Assembly: GCA_963754655.1 (NCBI GenBank) | Contig: CAVWGN010000001.1 | Span: 160,001-224,000 of the forward strand | Length of the DNA: 64,000 nt | Direction of reading: 5' to 3' | Source of the DNA: an uncultured Chlamydiae bacterium | Lineage (GTDB): Bacteria; Chlamydiota; Chlamydiia; Chlamydiales; Parachlamydiaceae | Shown: positions 3,155-57,618 of the stretch, piece by piece | Position numbering within the stretch: the stretch's first letter is position 1 | Layout of the letters: each line of letters opens with the position of its first letter | Notes under the pieces: generated by a model | The model's input: the letters and a program-made list of their open reading frames with translations, nothing else | Databases searched by the model: none | Told to the model about the DNA's origin: nothing | Made by a program: the position numbers and the translations under genes

Positions 3155-3235
3155 CTAGTACCTAACCACAGGAGTTTTGCCTATTGGGCTGCTTGAAAGC
3201 CCCAATAAGTAAAAACTCATATGGTTAAGTACTAG
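3155..3235. repeat. CTAG-bounded imperfect palindrome (MITE-like)
   Basis: ctagtacctaaccacaggagtttt...aaaactcatatggttaagtactag. A similar end (ctagtactcaaccac) recurs at 38036. Confidence 0.7.
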
Positions 3236-6858: not shown

Positions 6859-7386
6859 TGATATCCTTTAAATAACCAAATAGCTTGATTTGTTTAATAG
6901 CCTGAACGGTTTCAAAGAAAATAGCCCAGGGCATCGCGCTGGGTTAGATTAGCCCTCGTCATGTAGTCTGAAGGACTACAAGAAAATCATCTCATCCCCA
7001 ACATGTTTTCATTAAACGCAATTCTCCATTTGTTTTTATCCAGTTAGAAGATCCTTTCTTAATTTCCTGAATAAGCTTACTCAATGGCAAAGTACATGGT
7101 AAAGAAACAAAAGGTGAGTCAAAAAGAATACCATAAAACAATGACATTTCAAAATGATTACTGCGGATTTTAAAAAATATGAAGTGGCGTTTGATGAAAG
7201 CGTGTTTGGGATAGATGATTCTCTTGTAGTCCTTCAGACTACATGACGAGGGCACATCTAACCCAGGGCGATGCCCTGGGCTATTTTATTTGAAGCCCTT
7301 CAGGCTATTAAACAAATCAAGCTATTTGGTTATTTAAGGTTATCACTGAGCCCTGGGCTATTTTATTTAAAGCCTTTCAGGCTATT
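6859..7386. repeat. Long REP-like palindrome (~160-bp arms 6859-7019 and 7187-7345) plus an extra partial unit at 7350-7386
   Basis: The arms are near-perfect reverse complements and contain gtagtccttcagactac, acccagggcgatgccctgggct and gaagcccttcaggct hairpins. Confidence 0.9.
6992..7215. pseudogene. tnpA: IS200/IS605-family Y1 transposase (tnpA/RAYT-like) remnants on both strands inside the palindrome
   Basis: Minus strand: CTLPLSKLIQEIKKGSSNWIK. Plus strand with frameshifts: QKEYHKTMTFQ..LRILKKYEVAFDE.RVWD. Both are typical TnpA segments. Confidence 0.7.
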
Positions 7387-16431: not shown

Positions 16432-16480
16432 CCGGCAGGGTTCAATTGAAGGTAACATGTTTATGCCGTCCTTTCAGGCT
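16432..16480 (+). repeat. Truncated copy of the 38148 palindrome arm
   Basis: ccggcagggttca...catgtttatgccgtcctttcagg shares the CCGG start and a 23-bp block with 38148-38250. Confidence 0.65.
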
Positions 16481-28923: not shown

Positions 28924-30585
28924 TTATACTGTATACGCTTGATTTGGAGAGTTTCCTCTTTCAGGATAAATATATTTCAATTTGCCGTCTTTGACTAGTG
29001 GGGTTAAATATTGCGTTACTAAATGTTTTTTATCTTTCCTGTTAAGGAATTTTGCAATTTCTTGAGCCGTAAGAGGTTTCCAAGAACAAAGTGCGTAAAT
29101 TAGAGATCTAACTTCTTCATTTTTAGATCTTTTATTTAACTTTTCAATCTTTGACTTCAATACATCGGGTAGCTTTTCTACTTCTAAAAACTCTTCAAAC
29201 TGGTAGGTTTTGGACGCTAGCTGGTGGGTTTTGAGCTCAGACTGGCAGGTTTTAGGTTCCAACTGGTGGGTTTTATACTCAAATAGCCCGTCTTTCTCTT
29301 CATTTGATGTAGATTTTTTCTTTGAAGAAATTTTACGAGAGGCTTCAGCATGGATGGGTAAAGTCACTAAGAAAAAGCTTTGGTTTTCATCAGTTTCAAA
29401 TTTAGGCGACGGAGAACCATTAGTTACCATAGCGTTATGGATTTTAGGAACACCGGTGCAGCGGCCTTCCGTTAAGTGTAGTTCTTTAAGAAAATCCCCT
29501 ATGCGTCTATTTCTATACGTTCTAACTCGTACAGTTCCTTTGTTTAAATCTTCAATTTTAAGTGGAGGGAGAGGTCCTGGAAAAGACAAAATTTCAATAC
29601 GATCATTGTGGATGCTAACCTCAATTGGCTCTCTTTGAGCATAATTTTTATGATAGACTGCATTGGCTAAAACTTCTTCTAAAGCAACATAAGGATAGTT
29701 ATAGAAGCGGTCGGCTTCAGCGCGATCGGGTCGTTTACGTACCTCCTCTTTAATCAAGATTGATTGAAGATATCGCAATGCCTCTTTTAGCTGAATGTGA
29801 ATAGGACCTTTAAAAATTTTCTCTGAAAAGCTATCTCCAATTTCGTCGTGAAATTCTACAATATCAATCTGGGCACAGGGAAAGAATTTTTCAGGTTGGT
29901 CATTGAACATCAGAAGGCCGATGTTCAAAGGTTTCAAAAATTCTTCTGGACCCTGAACAATTTGCATTTGGCGACACAGATTGGTAAACGGAATTTTATC
30001 TACTTCAGAAATGAGGTCGCTTTTAACTTCGCGCAAGAAATCTTTGATTATCCCTAAATTCAGATCAGAAAGTTTAGCTTGATGGCAAATACGATCATCA
30101 AAAGGTACTTGATTGGCCATTTCGTGGAGTTTTTGAATATCGCTTGTCTGAGCTTTCACCGTCGAAGAATTTCGTCTGATGAAATATGCGTAAATAGCGT
30201 TTTTTCCTAATGTCTCTGGAGACTGATAGGGCCTTGTTTGCCCACCCGGACACCAAACGACCAGAATCATTTTGTCTTGGAAGATGACGGGTGCAACAAC
30301 TGGATTGTATTGAGGACGTATTCTGTGGCTCAGTTCCAGCATCTCTTTTTGAATCGAATCGATTTTATTGGGCGATAAGCCAGTAGGAGGAAAAACTGGT
30401 TGGCCATTTTCTTCTTTTACGCCAATAATGAGATACCCACCTCCCCAGTTGTTAATATCGTTGGCGAAGGCTGAAACGGTACGAATGAATGCTTCAGGAT
30501 TCCAACCTTCTTTGAATTCCAAACGCTCCCATTCGACAATCTGTCCTTTAAGCAATTCATCAATGTTTATTGGCAGCGCAGTCAT
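28924..30585 (-). CDS. AlbA_2/Schlafen-domain protein with HATPase_c_4-like and C-terminal HTH domains
   Basis: VEWERLEFKE, SAFAND..GG.LIIGV (AlbA/Schlafen); EVLANAVYH.NY, RN..I..FL, E..CTG.PKI; 7-aa tandem repeats KTHQLEP/KTCQSEL/KTHQLAS/KTYQFEE. Confidence 0.85.
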   Translation of the reverse strand: MTALPINIDELLKGQIVEWERLEFKEGWNPEAFIRTVSAFANDINNWGGGYLIIGVKEENGQPVFPPTGLSPNKIDSIQKEMLELSHRIRPQYNPVVAPVIFQDKMILVVWCPGGQTRPYQSPETLGKNAIYAYFIRRNSSTVKAQTSDIQKLHEMANQVPFDDRICHQAKLSDLNLGIIKDFLREVKSDLISEVDKIPFTNLCRQMQIVQGPEEFLKPLNIGLLMFNDQPEKFFPCAQIDIVEFHDEIGDSFSEKIFKGPIHIQLKEALRYLQSILIKEEVRKRPDRAEADRFYNYPYVALEEVLANAVYHKNYAQREPIEVSIHNDRIEILSFPGPLPPLKIEDLNKGTVRVRTYRNRRIGDFLKELHLTEGRCTGVPKIHNAMVTNGSPSPKFETDENQSFFLVTLPIHAEASRKISSKKKSTSNEEKDGLFEYKTHQLEPKTCQSELKTHQLASKTYQFEEFLEVEKLPDVLKSKIEKLNKRSKNEEVRSLIYALCSWKPLTAQEIAKFLNRKDKKHLVTQYLTPLVKDGKLKYIYPERGNSPNQAYTV

Positions 30586-37984: not shown

Positions 37985-39090
37985 CTAGGGAGCTTTGACG
38001 CACCTTGAAGGACTAAAATCTTTTAGGTACGCTCCCTAGTACTCAACCACATTAGTTTTGTGTATTTAGATTGCTTCAAATCCCCGGGGTTGAATTGGCG
38101 TAAGTGGGTCAATATTAGCAATATGGACCCACTTACGCCAATTCAACCCCGGGTAGGGTGTTCATTTTGTGCAAAAAATGAGCTTTATTTTTCACAATAA
38201 TTGGCATAGTTGAATTGAAAGTCGCATGTTTATGCCGTCCTTTCAGGACTCGATGTCTTTTTGATAGAACCCAGGCCTCCGCTTCGCTGCGACCTGGGCT
38301 GTAACATGACGGCCCTTCAGGCCTTAACAAGAGATCTTTAAGTCCCTCTTCTATAGTCCCTAAATCATCTTTTTGTTAAGGCCTGAAGGGCCGTCATGTT
38401 ACAGCCCAGGTCGCAGCGAAGCGGAGGCCTGGGTTCTATCAAAAAGACATCGAGTCCTGAAAGGACGGCATAAACATGCGACTTTCAATTCAACTATGCC
38501 AATTATTGTGAAAAATAAAGCTCATTTTTTGCACAAAATGAACACCCTACCCGGGACTTAACAAAGAACTGTTTTTGGGCTTGATATTCTTCGTGTCAAT
38601 TTAACAACACCCGCCTGTAAAAGGCTTTAGAGGCATATTTCCCGAAAATGATGCAAAAAACCATCAAGCCCAAAACAGTTCTTTGTTAAGTCCCGGCATA
38701 TGGCTAGGTAATCGGAATTTTTTATCTTTGTTTTTGCAATGTTGCTTGATCCATATCCTTTCCCTCAGCGACGAGCGGCGTTAGCCGCGCATGGATAGTA
38801 GCCGTGGGTGTAGGCGCAAGCCGAAACCCACGGTTACCCAAAAAACAAATTTGAGCCACGTTAGTGGCGTAGCATTCGTTTAAATAAACATTGCTCCACA
38901 ATCACATTTCCTACGCCACTAACGTGGCTTCATTTTTTTTACCATACACCGTGGGTTCCGGCTTGCGCCTACACCCACGGCTACTATCCATGCGCGGCTA
39001 ACGCCGCTTGAGCGACAATTTTAGCTTCTGGAGTTTGCCAGAAGCATTTCGTTCCTAGCCTATGGCCGGGACTTAACAAAGAACTGTTTT
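37985..39090. repeat. Chain of abutting palindromic mini-elements joined through CTAG/CCGG
   Basis: Units 37985-38039, 38083-38153 (28-bp perfect arms), 38148-38555 (183-bp perfect arms), 38551-38696, 38693-39069 (inner REP palindrome 38774-39008), and half-unit 39066-39090. Confidence 0.92.
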
Positions 39091-40223
39091 TATGTTGCAC
39101 TTTCCAAACTGGAGTGTAAATCGCTAATGATAGGATGATTTTGACGATCCAAAGTAACAGTATAATTCAATTTCCCAGTGACTGCATTTGCTAATATGAT
39201 TTTCTCTCCGCCCTTTTGCTCTTGCCACTCACGACGGATATCTAAAGAACCAGTGACTTCCACTTTCACTTTTTCTATCGCATGTGTCTCCGCATTGCGG
39301 ATAAATTCTAAGTGCACTGGCGGTAAATTTTGGGAAAATTTAGCAATTAATTTAAAGTTTTTATCTTCACTAGTGGGGTCTGGCCATGAGACATCGCCTG
39401 TATCCAAATTGAACTTCACTATCGCTGCATCAAATATGTTATTCAAACTGGTTTGATTAGCAACTAATTGAAGAGCTGTCTCCCAACGTTCATCTTGCTC
39501 TGTTTGAAATAAATCTTGTAAGGCTTGTACACCCGCCTTTACTCTTGTTTCTCCGTTAAGTTGATAAGAGGGCTGTGGATGATGATCATCAATTTGTAAA
39601 TAGGAGTCTTTCCTTAAAAAAGCAATGCCTCTTTGTAAATCATTCGCAAATTGAGGAACAGATTTCCCTTGCAATTCTTCCTTCGGAAAATCTTTTATCA
39701 TTCTATCCTGAATGAGATCTAAACGATCTTGATCTGATACCTCACTCTTCAATTCTTGCAAAAGCTGCGGGAGACGTTGAATTTGGTGATGGATTGTATC
39801 TTCTATTTTTCCCCCTTCTCGACTGGATTGAGATCTTCTAGGACCTAACAAAAAATTAATAATTTTATTAAACGCGTTTGTTATCTTCTTATGCGGTTTG
39901 TTTTTCTGTTTTGTTAATTTTTTAGTATATATTTGAATGTTTTTTTTTAAACCTTCCATATCTCCTATTTCTGTAGGATTAGATGAAAAAGACTCCTCTA
40001 AGTTTTGCAACTGATCGCGAGAAATCTTTTTAATCTCATTTAGGGAAAGCTTTTTGATATTTCCCCTTATTTCTGATTCATTAAGCGTATAATAAACATG
40101 TCCATCCTTCACAATAGATAGACGATCTTCAGAATTTACGTTTGTTTGAGTCCTTTCTGTTAACTTCAAAATGGATAGCCATTCTTGAGGCGATGAAGAT
40201 GATGAACTCGTTGCATTATTCAT
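39090..40223 (-). CDS. Hypothetical protein, effector-like (Ser-rich N-terminus)
   Basis: MNNATSSSSSSP; RBS ggaga; low GC; no known domain seen. Confidence 0.6.
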   Translation of the reverse strand: MNNATSSSSSSPQEWLSILKLTERTQTNVNSEDRLSIVKDGHVYYTLNESEIRGNIKKLSLNEIKKISRDQLQNLEESFSSNPTEIGDMEGLKKNIQIYTKKLTKQKNKPHKKITNAFNKIINFLLGPRRSQSSREGGKIEDTIHHQIQRLPQLLQELKSEVSDQDRLDLIQDRMIKDFPKEELQGKSVPQFANDLQRGIAFLRKDSYLQIDDHHPQPSYQLNGETRVKAGVQALQDLFQTEQDERWETALQLVANQTSLNNIFDAAIVKFNLDTGDVSWPDPTSEDKNFKLIAKFSQNLPPVHLEFIRNAETHAIEKVKVEVTGSLDIRREWQEQKGGEKIILANAVTGKLNYTVTLDRQNHPIISDLHSSLESAT

Positions 40224-46928: not shown

Positions 46929-48299
46929 TTATAAGTCATTAGTGATAATCTGGAGATCTTTGAAGTCTTGAGACAAATTATTCTTTATTCCTTTCTCTGT
47001 TAGTGCATCGCACCCGGTGATATTAAGTACTTTAAGATTTTTTGGCAAATTCTTCATGTCTTTATCTATTAATAGAGGACAGTATGATAAATTAAGATAT
47101 TCAAGATCTGGGGGTAACTTGTTTAGACTGTCAGCTTTAAAAAAGCTGCCCGATAAATTAAGCTTCTTAAGCTTTTGGGGTAAATTCTCTAATTCCTGCT
47201 CTGTTACGGTACGTAATCCAGCTAGGTGTATAGTAAGAGACTCAAGATCTTCAGGTAAATTTTTTATCGCCTCTTCTGTTAAGAGTGGGTTTTGAACTAA
47301 TGTCAGTGCTTTAAGATTTTTAGGCAATTGTTTTATTCCTTCATTGGTGAGGCGCGAGCATTGGATAAGTGCAATCGTTTTAAGATTTGCCGGTAAATTC
47401 CCTAATACTGTATTTATTGGCCCCTTGAGGTTCTTGATATTAAGATACTCAAGAGCGGGCAAATTCTTTAGGCCTTTTGATAAAAAGCATCCGGATAAAT
47501 CAATCGTCCTAAGATGTGGTAAATTTATGAAATGCTCTGGCAATAAAACCCAATCACTAGATATTTTAAGAGATTGAAGATCTTTAGGTAAATTTTCTAT
47601 TCCTGCTTCTGTCAATGATGAACATTGAATTAATGACAAAGCTTTAAGCTTTTGAGGCAAATTTTTTAGTCCTTCATCTGTTAAATGATTGCAATTAACT
47701 AAATTAAGCACCTTAAGATTTGGACAGTATTTTAATAGGTTTTTTAGATCTTCATCTGATAGAGGAGTGTCTTCTAAATGAAGCTTTTTCAAAAACTCTC
47801 CCACTTGTTTGATCATTTTTAGCTTTATTTCGAAGGGGATAGGGTTTTTTGCCTTGGAACTCCTATAGTGTAATTCTTCTTCCTCTAATATCGAAACTAA
47901 TACTCGAGGATCTTGCATAAGTTGTTGAGAATTTTTGGCTGTCCTTCCGAATGCATTTTGCGTTTCTTCGTCCCACTGTTTCAAAAAAGAAATCAGCACA
48001 TCTTCTGGTAAATTTTCTATCGTTTTTCCAGTCTCAAAGTTTTTGCAAATTTCATTTATTTTTTGAACTACTGGATCATGAGGATCCACTTCTTCTTGAA
48101 TAAGTTTGGATTTGATAGTGAGAAGATAAGATTGAGCATCTTGTTGACTAATGTAATTTACCCCTCGCTGCAATATTTCTAAAATTTCAGGGAGATGTTG
48201 TTTAGGGTTGCTTGCGATTAATGGATCTAGCCGCTCGTGAAATTGAGTATTTGAAGAAATTTCAGATGGGTCATTGGTTGGTCTTGCGCCTATATTCAT
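46929..48299 (-). CDS. F-box-like plus leucine-rich-repeat protein (candidate effector)
   Basis: IENLPEDVLISFL followed by about 12 repeats of LKxLxLxxCxxLTxEGIKNLP. Confidence 0.85.
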   Translation of the reverse strand: MNIGARPTNDPSEISSNTQFHERLDPLIASNPKQHLPEILEILQRGVNYISQQDAQSYLLTIKSKLIQEEVDPHDPVVQKINEICKNFETGKTIENLPEDVLISFLKQWDEETQNAFGRTAKNSQQLMQDPRVLVSILEEEELHYRSSKAKNPIPFEIKLKMIKQVGEFLKKLHLEDTPLSDEDLKNLLKYCPNLKVLNLVNCNHLTDEGLKNLPQKLKALSLIQCSSLTEAGIENLPKDLQSLKISSDWVLLPEHFINLPHLRTIDLSGCFLSKGLKNLPALEYLNIKNLKGPINTVLGNLPANLKTIALIQCSRLTNEGIKQLPKNLKALTLVQNPLLTEEAIKNLPEDLESLTIHLAGLRTVTEQELENLPQKLKKLNLSGSFFKADSLNKLPPDLEYLNLSYCPLLIDKDMKNLPKNLKVLNITGCDALTEKGIKNNLSQDFKDLQIITNDL

Positions 48300-48589: not shown

Positions 48590-48987
48590 TTTTGACTAAA
48601 AACATTTGACACTTGCAGCCCTTCAGGCTGCATGACACAACTCACTCAACCCCAGGGCGTTGCCCTGGGCTTTTGCTCTTACAGCCCTTCAGGCTGAGGC
48701 AGGGAATCTCAGCTTGGCATAAGTCCTTCAGGCTCTAAGCAATGACTGTAGGTTATAATAAGCCCTTCAGCTGATGCAGTGAATCTCAGCGTGCCATAAG
48801 TCCTTCAGGCTCTAGCAGTGACTCTTAGCTTGCAATATTAGACCTGCTGTCTAAAAGTGTACACTATGAGATTTCGTGCATCAGCCTGAAGGGCTGTAAG
48901 TGCAATAGCTCAGGGCAACGCCCTGGGGTTGAGCAGGTTGTGTCATGCAGCCTGAAGGGCTGCAAGTGTCAAATATGTTAGTCAAAA
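48590..48987. repeat. Long REP-like palindrome (~120-bp arms) with tandem REP units in the loop
   Basis: gcagcccttcaggctgc..cccagggcgttgccctgggct..cagcccttcaggctg mirrored; ~65-bp duplication 48683-48747 / 48761-48823. Confidence 0.9.
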
Positions 48988-57013: not shown

Positions 57014-57618
57014 AAGTAGGCTAATACAAATCTGGCAACTGAATCAGTTATGGTGTTTTTAATAAAAACATTTGACACTGGCAGCCTTACAGGCTGCATG
57101 ATACAACTTGCTCAACCCCAGTGCGTTGCCCCATACGGATCAAGCTAAGAGATGAGTTTATGCTAAGGGACGCATTCAGTCGCCGCGCCGCTTCGCTCTG
57201 GGCTCTGTGAGGGGTTGTGGACCCACCGTTCGGTCGCCCTCCGGGGCTCGGTCACAGTGGGCTAGAATCAGTCGTCCTACGGACTCTAGCGGCAATGTAG
57301 AACCCATTGAATGCTAGTCAATGGTGTTTTTGATAATGCCGCTAGAGTCCGTAGGACGACTGATTCTAGCCCACTGTGACCGAGCCCCGGAGGGCGACCG
57401 AACGGTGGGTCCACAACCCCTCATATAGAGCCCAGAGCGAAGCGGCGCGGCGACTGAATGCGTCCCTTAGCATAAACTCATCTCTTAGCTTGATCCGTAT
57501 GGGGCAACGCGCTGGGGTTAAGTAGGTTGTGTCATGCAGCCTGTAGGTCTGCCAGTGTCAAATATTTTTATTAAAAACACCATAACTGACTCAGTTGCCA
57601 GATTGTATTAGCCTACTT
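57014..57618. repeat. ~600-bp nested palindrome (~280-bp arms)
   Basis: The outer part belongs to the 48.6-kb family. Inner element 57132-57501 is bounded by catacggatcaagctaagag / ctcttagcttgatccgtatg. Confidence 0.92.

Follow-up and report, generated by a model that had tools for sequence, protein, structure and literature searches.

A palindrome chain in a chlamydial genome as a probable nest of miniature elements docking on a duplicated 9-bp REP stem

How does a chain of unlike palindromes come to be assembled, seemingly end to end, at one place in a bacterial chromosome? The window analysed here, a stretch of 64,000 nucleotides corresponding to C1:160001-224000 of the 3.16-Mb two-contig genome of an uncultured Parachlamydiaceae bacterium (window coordinates are used hereafter unless prefixed C1), holds such a chain, and repeat islands make up 15.5% of the chromosome. 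A first-pass annotation of the window had proposed that non-autonomous elements insert serially at a palindromic tetranucleotide, CCGG or CTAG, which each insertion regenerates and which neighbouring units share with no spacer between them. Much of what it described is present in the sequence: CCGG lies at 38084, 38149, 38551, 38693 and 39066 and CTAG at 37985 and 38036, the long palindromes are real (the 183-nt arms 38148-38330 and 38373-38555 are 100% complementary), the end of the unit named U3 below occurs three times in the window, and two units, U2 and U4, indeed consist of a terminal shell around a REP-like core. A sixth CCGG, at 38958, is internal to U4. We name the units U0 (37985-38039) and then U1, U2, U3 and U4 in order; the chain is nested inside a further element, P, which had gone unnoticed. 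In our reading the chain is probably a nest of MITEs from two cut-and-paste transposase sets, with the history reconstructed below. The features are the following.

3155..3235, no strand: short CTAG-bounded palindrome with P-like ends
16434..16478, plus strand: half copy of U2's inner element, the CC before its start being incidental
37988..38036, no strand: U0, what remains of an IS5 (IS427-like) element, with the IS terminus, in a CTAG context, on its right
38039..38153, no strand: left arm and core of P, an element whose ends are GTAC in a CTAG context, including the U1 of the first annotation; right arm absent
38154..38549, no strand: U2, a palindromic MITE of 396 bp whose ends read TAGG, inserted at the second CCCCGGG stem of P
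38203..38500, no strand: inner element of U2, 298 bp with GGCA ends, enclosing an inverted REP doublet
38550..38551, no strand: collapsed U2-U3 joint, 2 bp remaining of the expected 9, source of the CCGG at 38551
38552..38695, no strand: U3, a MITE of 144 bp whose ends read CGGG, the left-hand member of the composite U3-U4-U3
38696..38704, no strand: inner joint of the composite, a 9-bp spacer; identical 9-mer at 24/29 U4 left ends
38705..39057, no strand: U4, 353 bp, weak TAGG ends around a REP doublet, now apparently moving between two U3
39058..39066, no strand: second inner joint, a 9-bp spacer; identical 9-mer at 27/37 U4 right ends
39067..39091, no strand: first 25 bp of the right-hand U3, the remainder of which is missing together with P's right arm
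39090..40223, minus strand: 377-aa ORF without a Pfam family, its stop codon overlapping the point of truncation

The joints between units were examined across the whole genome, where paired copies number 47 for U2, 72 for U3 and 31 for U4. U2, U3, U4 and an insertion sequence designated IS-A begin with YRGG and adjoin a 9-bp REP stem, RCCNNNGGY, and the gap is exactly 9 bp in 85 of the 89 joints between their members (68 of the joints are U3-U4 and two U4-U4). The U3-U4 and U4-U3 joints of the window, reported at first as having no spacer, conform to this rule: their spacers, which match at 8 of 9 positions as a direct repeat, had been counted as arms of U4. Termini are fixed as TAGG at 158/177 U2 ends, CGGG at 134/150 U3 ends and TAGG at 62/66 U4 ends, and RCCNNNGGY with at most one mismatch precedes 134/177 U2, 134/150 U3 and 60/66 U4 ends, a motif that in its exact form occurs once per 2,400 bp of the chromosome. 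When flanking 4-mers were tabulated for each terminal arm, as had been suggested, CCGG was not general among U2, U4 and inner-element ends. It spans or abuts 117/150 U3 ends, 11/177 U2 ends and 0/66 U4 ends; U2 ends more often read CTAG (101/177), and U3 ends also read TCGG. Over the genome the observed/expected ratio of CCGG is 0.97, and 124 of its 2837 occurrences lie at family ends. At U3 ends the tetranucleotide results from the usual final C of the 9-mer meeting the CGG with which U3 starts, and we conclude that it is a by-product of these two sequences and not a target, a role that the flank tables reject. In the window the CCGGs come from the REP stems of P (38084, 38149), from the deletion that fused U2 to U3 (38551) and from U3 termini (38693, 39066). 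The deletion is the best reading of the U2-U3 joint since it is the sole 2-bp gap among 68 joints in paired copies, of which 66 are 9 bp; the remaining five U2-U3 joints in paired copies all have 9 bp. The original idea of serial insertion by non-autonomous elements at a site that they copy is retained, with the difference that the copied site is not CCGG but a 9-bp RCCNNNGGY duplication. An apparent tetranucleotide system is in this way replaced by a testable 9-bp one.

A census of multicopy ORFs yielded IS-A, an element of 1,846 bp with TGGG ends. All nine copies of 1845-1846 bp, and 9 of the 11 paired IS-type copies, are flanked by exact 9-bp duplications, which belong to the same class as the 9-mers at the joints. 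Its protein of 439 aa has 51 homologues, and residues D68, D142, D166, H169 and E340 are invariant in the 43 that were aligned, giving both a DDE triad (D68, D142, E340) and a DxxH motif (D166/H169), a name in use for the p-MULT / IS256 superfamily. The structure model (pLDDT 88.9) was closest to Hermes (Z 15.0, rmsd 4.8, 319 residues aligned), followed by the P element transposase (11.8) and ISCth4 (10.6), and Foldseek gave an E value of 8e-6 against the Hermes-like fold; sequence identity to solved structures is 12-14%, and a PDB sequence search with the family profile returned no match. IS-A itself matched no Pfam family and no NCBIfam transposase model, no Pfam transposase match at cut-off occurred among the 25 families listed for the 43 members, and Atlas neighbours with Transposase_mut, ISL3, ISKra4 or related families were reached only at 0.80. 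The hAT superfamily is marked by 8-bp duplications and a hAT dimerisation domain; the duplications of the present family are 9 bp, and no Pfam match to that domain was found. Comparison with the ISNCY IS892 group, carried out without the IS892 sequence itself, matched nine plasmid records, none from PCC 7120 and all annotated as hypothetical. Judging from alignments and the structure model, IS-A and its relative IS-B, described below, are likely DDE transposases of a family uncatalogued by the Pfam and NCBIfam models tested.

This family is present in at least 29 of 400 genomes of the phylum and also in cyanobacteria, planctomycetes and Bacteroidota. Its 117 loci were reduced to 58 distinct candidate elements, a set that includes some false end pairs from the TIR scan, and exact 9-bp duplications were found in 27 of the 58; the ends seen most often are TGGGGTGT, TAGGCTGT and TAGGGTGT, of which the third is that of U2 itself. 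The family-wide target consensus, SNYNNNRNS, is weak, which together with the 27/58 exact duplications argues that REP targeting is lineage-specific, and in Calothrix and two other chlamydiae the targets of family members are varied, so specialisation on REP stems is not a property of the whole family. Two Bacteroidota loci (L110, L111) contain family members with palindromic, REP-stem-like duplications, hinting at REP targeting outside the chlamydiae.

A profile search of the genome detected a second member of the family, IS-B, full-length and single-copy at C1:426687-428472. It had been suggested that transposase genes bounded by the ends of the chain units be looked for, and IS-B carries those of U3: the first 17 nt of U3 are identical to its left end and 12 nt to its right end. 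IS-B has a 447-residue open frame with a short upstream ORF, is flanked by an 8-of-9 duplication and encodes a protein 28% identical to that of IS-A (E 5e-39) in which the catalytic residues are kept. U3 would accordingly be named a MITE of IS-B; no other finding ties the chain so closely to an enzyme, and the pair forms a candidate natural MITE-transposase set for a DDE family that lacks a Pfam or NCBIfam model. Right-end remnants of IS-B, each adjoining a 9-mer, lie at C1:762988 and 2646730 and appear to be former extra copies. The U3 end occurs 148 times here and at most once in each of 400 other genomes, like a reversed control; in metagenomes it gave five matches, all to one unrelated sequence without a transposase, and a metagenome scan with the IS-B protein found nothing.

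Solo U3 copies carry exact non-palindromic duplications in 7 of 69 paired cases. When the flanks of U3-U4-U3 were compared, exact 9-bp direct repeats were found in 6 of 14 copies and repeats with at most one mismatch in 11 of 14, two of the three misses being located in a longer tandem array; flank shuffles gave a mean of 0.78 exact repeats, and none of 20,000 reached 6. These flanks suggest that two U3 flanking a U4 move as one composite. The inner 9-mers of the composite are constant and are thus regarded as fossils of an older event. U4 ends share little beyond TAGG, and U4 may be either a decayed MITE of the IS-A/IS-B family or captured cargo. In the window the composite breaks off 25 bp into its second U3, where the stop codon of the neighbouring 377-aa ORF lies; this ORF has homologues in 3 of 5 genomes searched that align to residue 375.

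U2 is three-layered, with a TAGG shell, the 298-bp inner element and a REP doublet. In its first 9 nt the shell is identical to the ends that family ISs have in Nostoc and in other chlamydiae, and duplications around U2 are exact in 5/45 copies and have at most one mismatch in 22/45. The inner element is also found without the shell, with exact 8-bp duplications in 5/15 copies; CC precedes its ends in only 1 of 30 cases, so the CCGG at 16432 does not mark an element start as had been thought. A second mirror shell, about 70 bp in size and without a shell-core duplication, encloses it at C1:1081571, 1188505, 2178594 and 1307074, which suggests repeated capture of the inner element by inverted copying. 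The genome contains no match to an empty U2 shell and no IS1595 match as a partner for the inner element, and the profile search found no autonomous partner for U2 or U4 in the assembly.

Inverted REP doublets form the cores of U2, U4 and P. The REP of the U2 core lies on both sides of a Y1 transposase gene (L004), and the U4 core resembles a REP on one side, upstream, of another Y1 gene (L006; 80% over 103 nt); no Y1 gene flanked by P's core was found in the genome. Two host REP classes also adjoin Y1 genes, and of nine Y1 matches in the genome several are flanked by REPs of these classes. The doublets within the shells would derive from RAYT-type elements and now also be carried by DDE transposition. 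Two segments of U2, 38270-38324 and 38379-38433, score 36.4 bits against the Rfam motif Acido-Lenti-1 (gathering score 37); microRNA matches from Rfam in the units fall far below their gathering scores. Other mobile elements use the same repeats: one encoding a 375-aa IS5/IS1182-like transposase is found at one and the same 9-bp position of the U2 REP core in 10/10 full-length copies (e.g. L014:608-1735), copies of IS4, a second IS5, IS481 and IS256 are mostly inside these repeats (e.g. L015, L016), and many arrays are enclosed by an outermost shell (44 ends, e.g. C1:1214613-1215212) with 7-8-bp duplications in 5/10 paired copies. In the window, three further long REP-type palindromes were noted at 6868-7337, 48599-48979 and 57029-57604. 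Two ORFs of the window have repeats of their own, namely internal repeats of 66-75 nt, typical of a repeat protein, in 46929-48299 and 21-nt tandem repeats (29195-29278) in 28924-30585.

At the left end of the chain a different set of elements is found. The segment 38039-38153 matches the first 115 nt of an empty P at 111 of 115 positions, empty P being a CTAG-bounded palindrome of 159-160 bp with U1 as its fixed core. U1 had been described as a separate unit; all 11 paired P copies shorter than 200 bp contain it, each of the 23 paired U1 copies is accompanied by P stems or by an inserted U2, and in other genera this core recurs at 12 loci, flanked by similar stems (CCCGCGG or a variant of it on one side at 8 of the loci) and enclosed in different outer shells. 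These three observations rule out U1 as a mobile unit, and it is best described from such comparisons as an old REP-doublet core and not as a CCGG insertion. Of 44 paired P copies, U2 is present in 25, whether or not U1 is there too, and all three units are lacking in 6. U0 ends like an 840-bp IS that is present in about 24 paired copies and whose protein matches the IS5 family (NF033580, E 5.5e-40, 137.5 bits for a cut-off of 110), and this remnant shares a single CTAG with the left end of P. For this joint, at 38036, the tetranucleotide idea holds, in a separate set that duplicates TA: the IS5-like IS and P start with G and end with C, so that a TA duplication restores CTAG on both sides. 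GTACT ends are abutted by 17/24 paired IS5-like copies, for an expectation of 3.4% from the share of CTAG sites with such ends, and CTA precedes 128 of 161 P ends. An IS630 at C1:954916-956046 shares only GTACT with the ends of P. At C1:1481143-1481302 P occupies a CTAG made by a U4 end and its 9-mer, an instance in which the 9-bp system creates a target for the CTAG system.

We then asked how far the target itself accounts for the chains. RCCCNGGGY, the stem of several REP classes, lies in repeats at 219 of 236 sites. Removal of a chain together with one 9-mer yields a sequence that exists elsewhere in the genome for 29 of 77 clean chains, and for 4 of 6 solo IS-A copies the empty REP is found at paralogous sites, in 3 to 34 copies per case. 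In a simulation in which each insertion doubles any available 9-mer, 15.5, 35.7 or 52.8 mixed joints were expected under three target definitions, later deletion being ignored, and 17 were seen. Target doubling alone accounts for the chains, and given the simulation a special preference for landing beside existing elements is unneeded. Joints between like units number 0 of 17 (P ~5e-5 under random pairing), so the units within a chain are distinct; we infer that identical neighbours collapse and are lost after insertion. No orthologous empty site was found, the relatives being distant with no synteny across the site; genome G002 shares only the tatC side of the locus.

The same rules are seen in two other genera. 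Genome G411 has four copies of a sister of IS-B (support 100/99), all with exact 9-bp duplications and three of the four in the same REP stem. Genome G416 has 86 U2-type ends and shells of about 128 bp that lack a core; of the ends sampled, 18 of 31 lie beside RCCNNNGGY (at most one mismatch) and one chain has a 9-bp joint, matching outer 9-mers and no CCGG, while exact duplications flank 0 of 5 paired shells and a transposase search gave a fragment only. Genome G009 has U2-type shells around another core. No partner was found beside U2-type ends at eight loci of G009 and G416.

These observations lead us to propose the following history. One set would consist of the uncatalogued DDE family (IS-A and IS-B, with YRGG ends), the members of which have 9-bp duplications at their borders and, in this genome, lie in RCCNNNGGY REP stems; because the entire recognised stem would be duplicated, a usable target would be left on both sides of each insertion, and later elements would dock beside earlier ones with a single 9-mer between. 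U2 would be a MITE of a third family member, one not found in the assembly. The other set would comprise the IS5/IS427-like IS and P, the latter possibly driven by IS630, with TA duplication inside CTAG. At this locus P would have inserted at the CTAG of the IS5 remnant, or the reverse, after which U2 would have entered P's second stem and U3-U4-U3 the duplicated target of U2; deletions would finally have fused U2 to U3 and removed everything past 39091.

A different origin has to be weighed against this history, namely that the arrays arose mainly by recombination or replication template switching at the quasi-palindromic 9-mers, possibly started by RAYT nicks, with DDE transposition seeding some copies. 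Several features speak in its favour: flanks differ at two or more positions in 36 of 77 clean chains and are mirror images in 11 of 77, the inner element sits in two perfect-mirror shells without a duplication, tandem U3-U4 runs with inversions occur at C1:413-416 kb, several of the nine Y1 matches are flanked by these REPs, and like-with-like joints are lacking, a sign of loss after insertion. However, the exact non-palindromic duplications of IS-A, solo U3 and U3-U4-U3, and a full-length IS with U3's ends, need a transposase making staggered cuts, and mirror flanks would follow from deletion inside palindromic hosts. We therefore consider this origin unlikely as the main one; recombination probably acts as a second layer. 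Imperfect flanks, those of U2 and of the G416 shells included, speak against the nest of MITEs but could result from ageing, from deletion between repeated stems or from exchange between copies, as imperfect repeats of ISRm22 are attributed, in the part of the account available, to recombination between copies (PMC1525189), and part of the array structure may be recombinational.

Mis-assembly of collapsed repeats is considerably less probable still. In its favour, the U2-U3 joint has no counterpart elsewhere in the genome, the chain is cut off on the right, no spanning read was found, and the locus is not spanned by any contig of an independent contig set; against this, the assembly has two contigs, copies differ by 1-5%, units of the same kinds are found again in dozens of arrays whose outer duplications match, and in the independent set, which could itself come from the source sample, the units occur at high depth next to unique DNA that is near-identical. 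A single system inserting at CCGG or CTAG, with neighbours sharing the tetranucleotide, has the five CCGGs at apparent window junctions, most U3 ends and the CTAG joint with its GTACT neighbours on its side and is hardly credible in view of the U2, U4 and inner-element counts, the TCGG ends, the CCCGCGG stem on one side in 8/12 relatives' loci and the G416 joint without CCGG.

Returning to the nest of MITEs from two transposase sets, a broader version of it can be put forward tentatively, with less confidence than would be needed to prefer it: a hAT/IS256-like family might have specialised on REP stems in at least three chlamydial genera, whole-stem copying providing a self-extending docking site, while MITEs capture RAYT-type doublets and form composites and two unrelated chemistries build arrays together. 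If true, enzymes only 28% identical would read one 9-bp stem and copy it whole, and would be compact, site-preferring, serially reusable integrases.

Compared with described systems, this one works like a REP-targeting IS with MITEs. ISPsy8, ISPa11, ISPpu9, ISPpu10, ISRm22 and ISRm19 (Tobes and Pareja 2006, PMC1525189) and IS1397 and IS621 (Delihas 2011, PMC3184786) are given as REP-targeting ISs in the available parts of these sources, with a fixed insertion point in REP stems and a REP rebuilt on removal of the element; both traits, by which Tobes and Pareja recognise type 1, are found here. In contrast to the duplications of 0, 2, 3 or 6 bp in those accessible accounts, the 9 bp duplicated here are a whole stem half, so that the target doubles; the enzyme lies outside Pfam and NCBIfam, and the target is used by several non-autonomous partners, which together make up mixed chains. 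TIRs around a non-coding core, as in MITEs, are found in U2, U3 and P and are weak in U4. Nezha and the MITE-flanked units termed IMU, as presented in the available part of PMC3184786, resemble our elements in their IS-shared TIRs, target duplication, long hairpin and lack of a transposase, and IMU-type units also in that two MITEs mobilise the DNA between them; here, unlike there, the cargo is a REP doublet or another MITE, stacking is three-layered and the target is a REP stem. With REPINs, RAYT REPtrons and TIRtrons (Bertels and Rainey 2011, PMC3116915; Di Nocera 2013, PMC3733652) the inverted REP doublets are shared, as is the location of the same REPs around Y1 transposase genes, whereas doublets wrapped in DDE-type ends with target duplications do not figure in the accessible portions of those descriptions. 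The prokaryotic Mutator-like IS256, ISH6, ISLre2, ISKra4 and ISMich2 (Guerillot 2014, PMC3942029) have, in the portion available, a DDE core with helical insertion and DxxH, and ISMich2 has two ORFs joined by an apparent -1 frameshift, in likeness to the present elements; the fold of the IS-A model resembles that of Hermes, a eukaryotic hAT, and of ISCth4. The family differs from Mutator-like elements and Hermes in ends that begin with TRGG or CGGG and in having no Pfam transposase match in 43 members. ISPpu9 (PMC12288879) is, from what its accessible text describes, a REP-targeting IS whose transposase is used by a non-autonomous module, with mixed modules; it is of the IS110 family with circular intermediates, not a DDE element with a 9-bp duplication. 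What is catalogued as the Acido-Lenti-1 RNA motif (RF01687; Weinberg 2010, PMC2864571) is here a multicopy inverted-pair DNA repeat flanking a Y1 gene, which suggests that this orphan Rfam motif is a mobile DNA repeat. The literature covered, ISfinder and subscription papers lying outside its scope, gave no account of this family, of chains with 9-bp joints or of these repeats in chlamydiae, and the family may have a prior name. REP-targeting ISs, MITEs, MITE-flanked units and REPINs were known already, and each ingredient has a precedent; new are the 9-bp joint rule, IS-B as the putative partner of U3, the candidate composite, the absent like-with-like joints and the parallel in two genera. 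The locus illustrates how target duplication by itself can give rise to complex BIME-like mosaics and how REP doublets can be carried inside DDE shells, a point of relevance to the spread of REPs.
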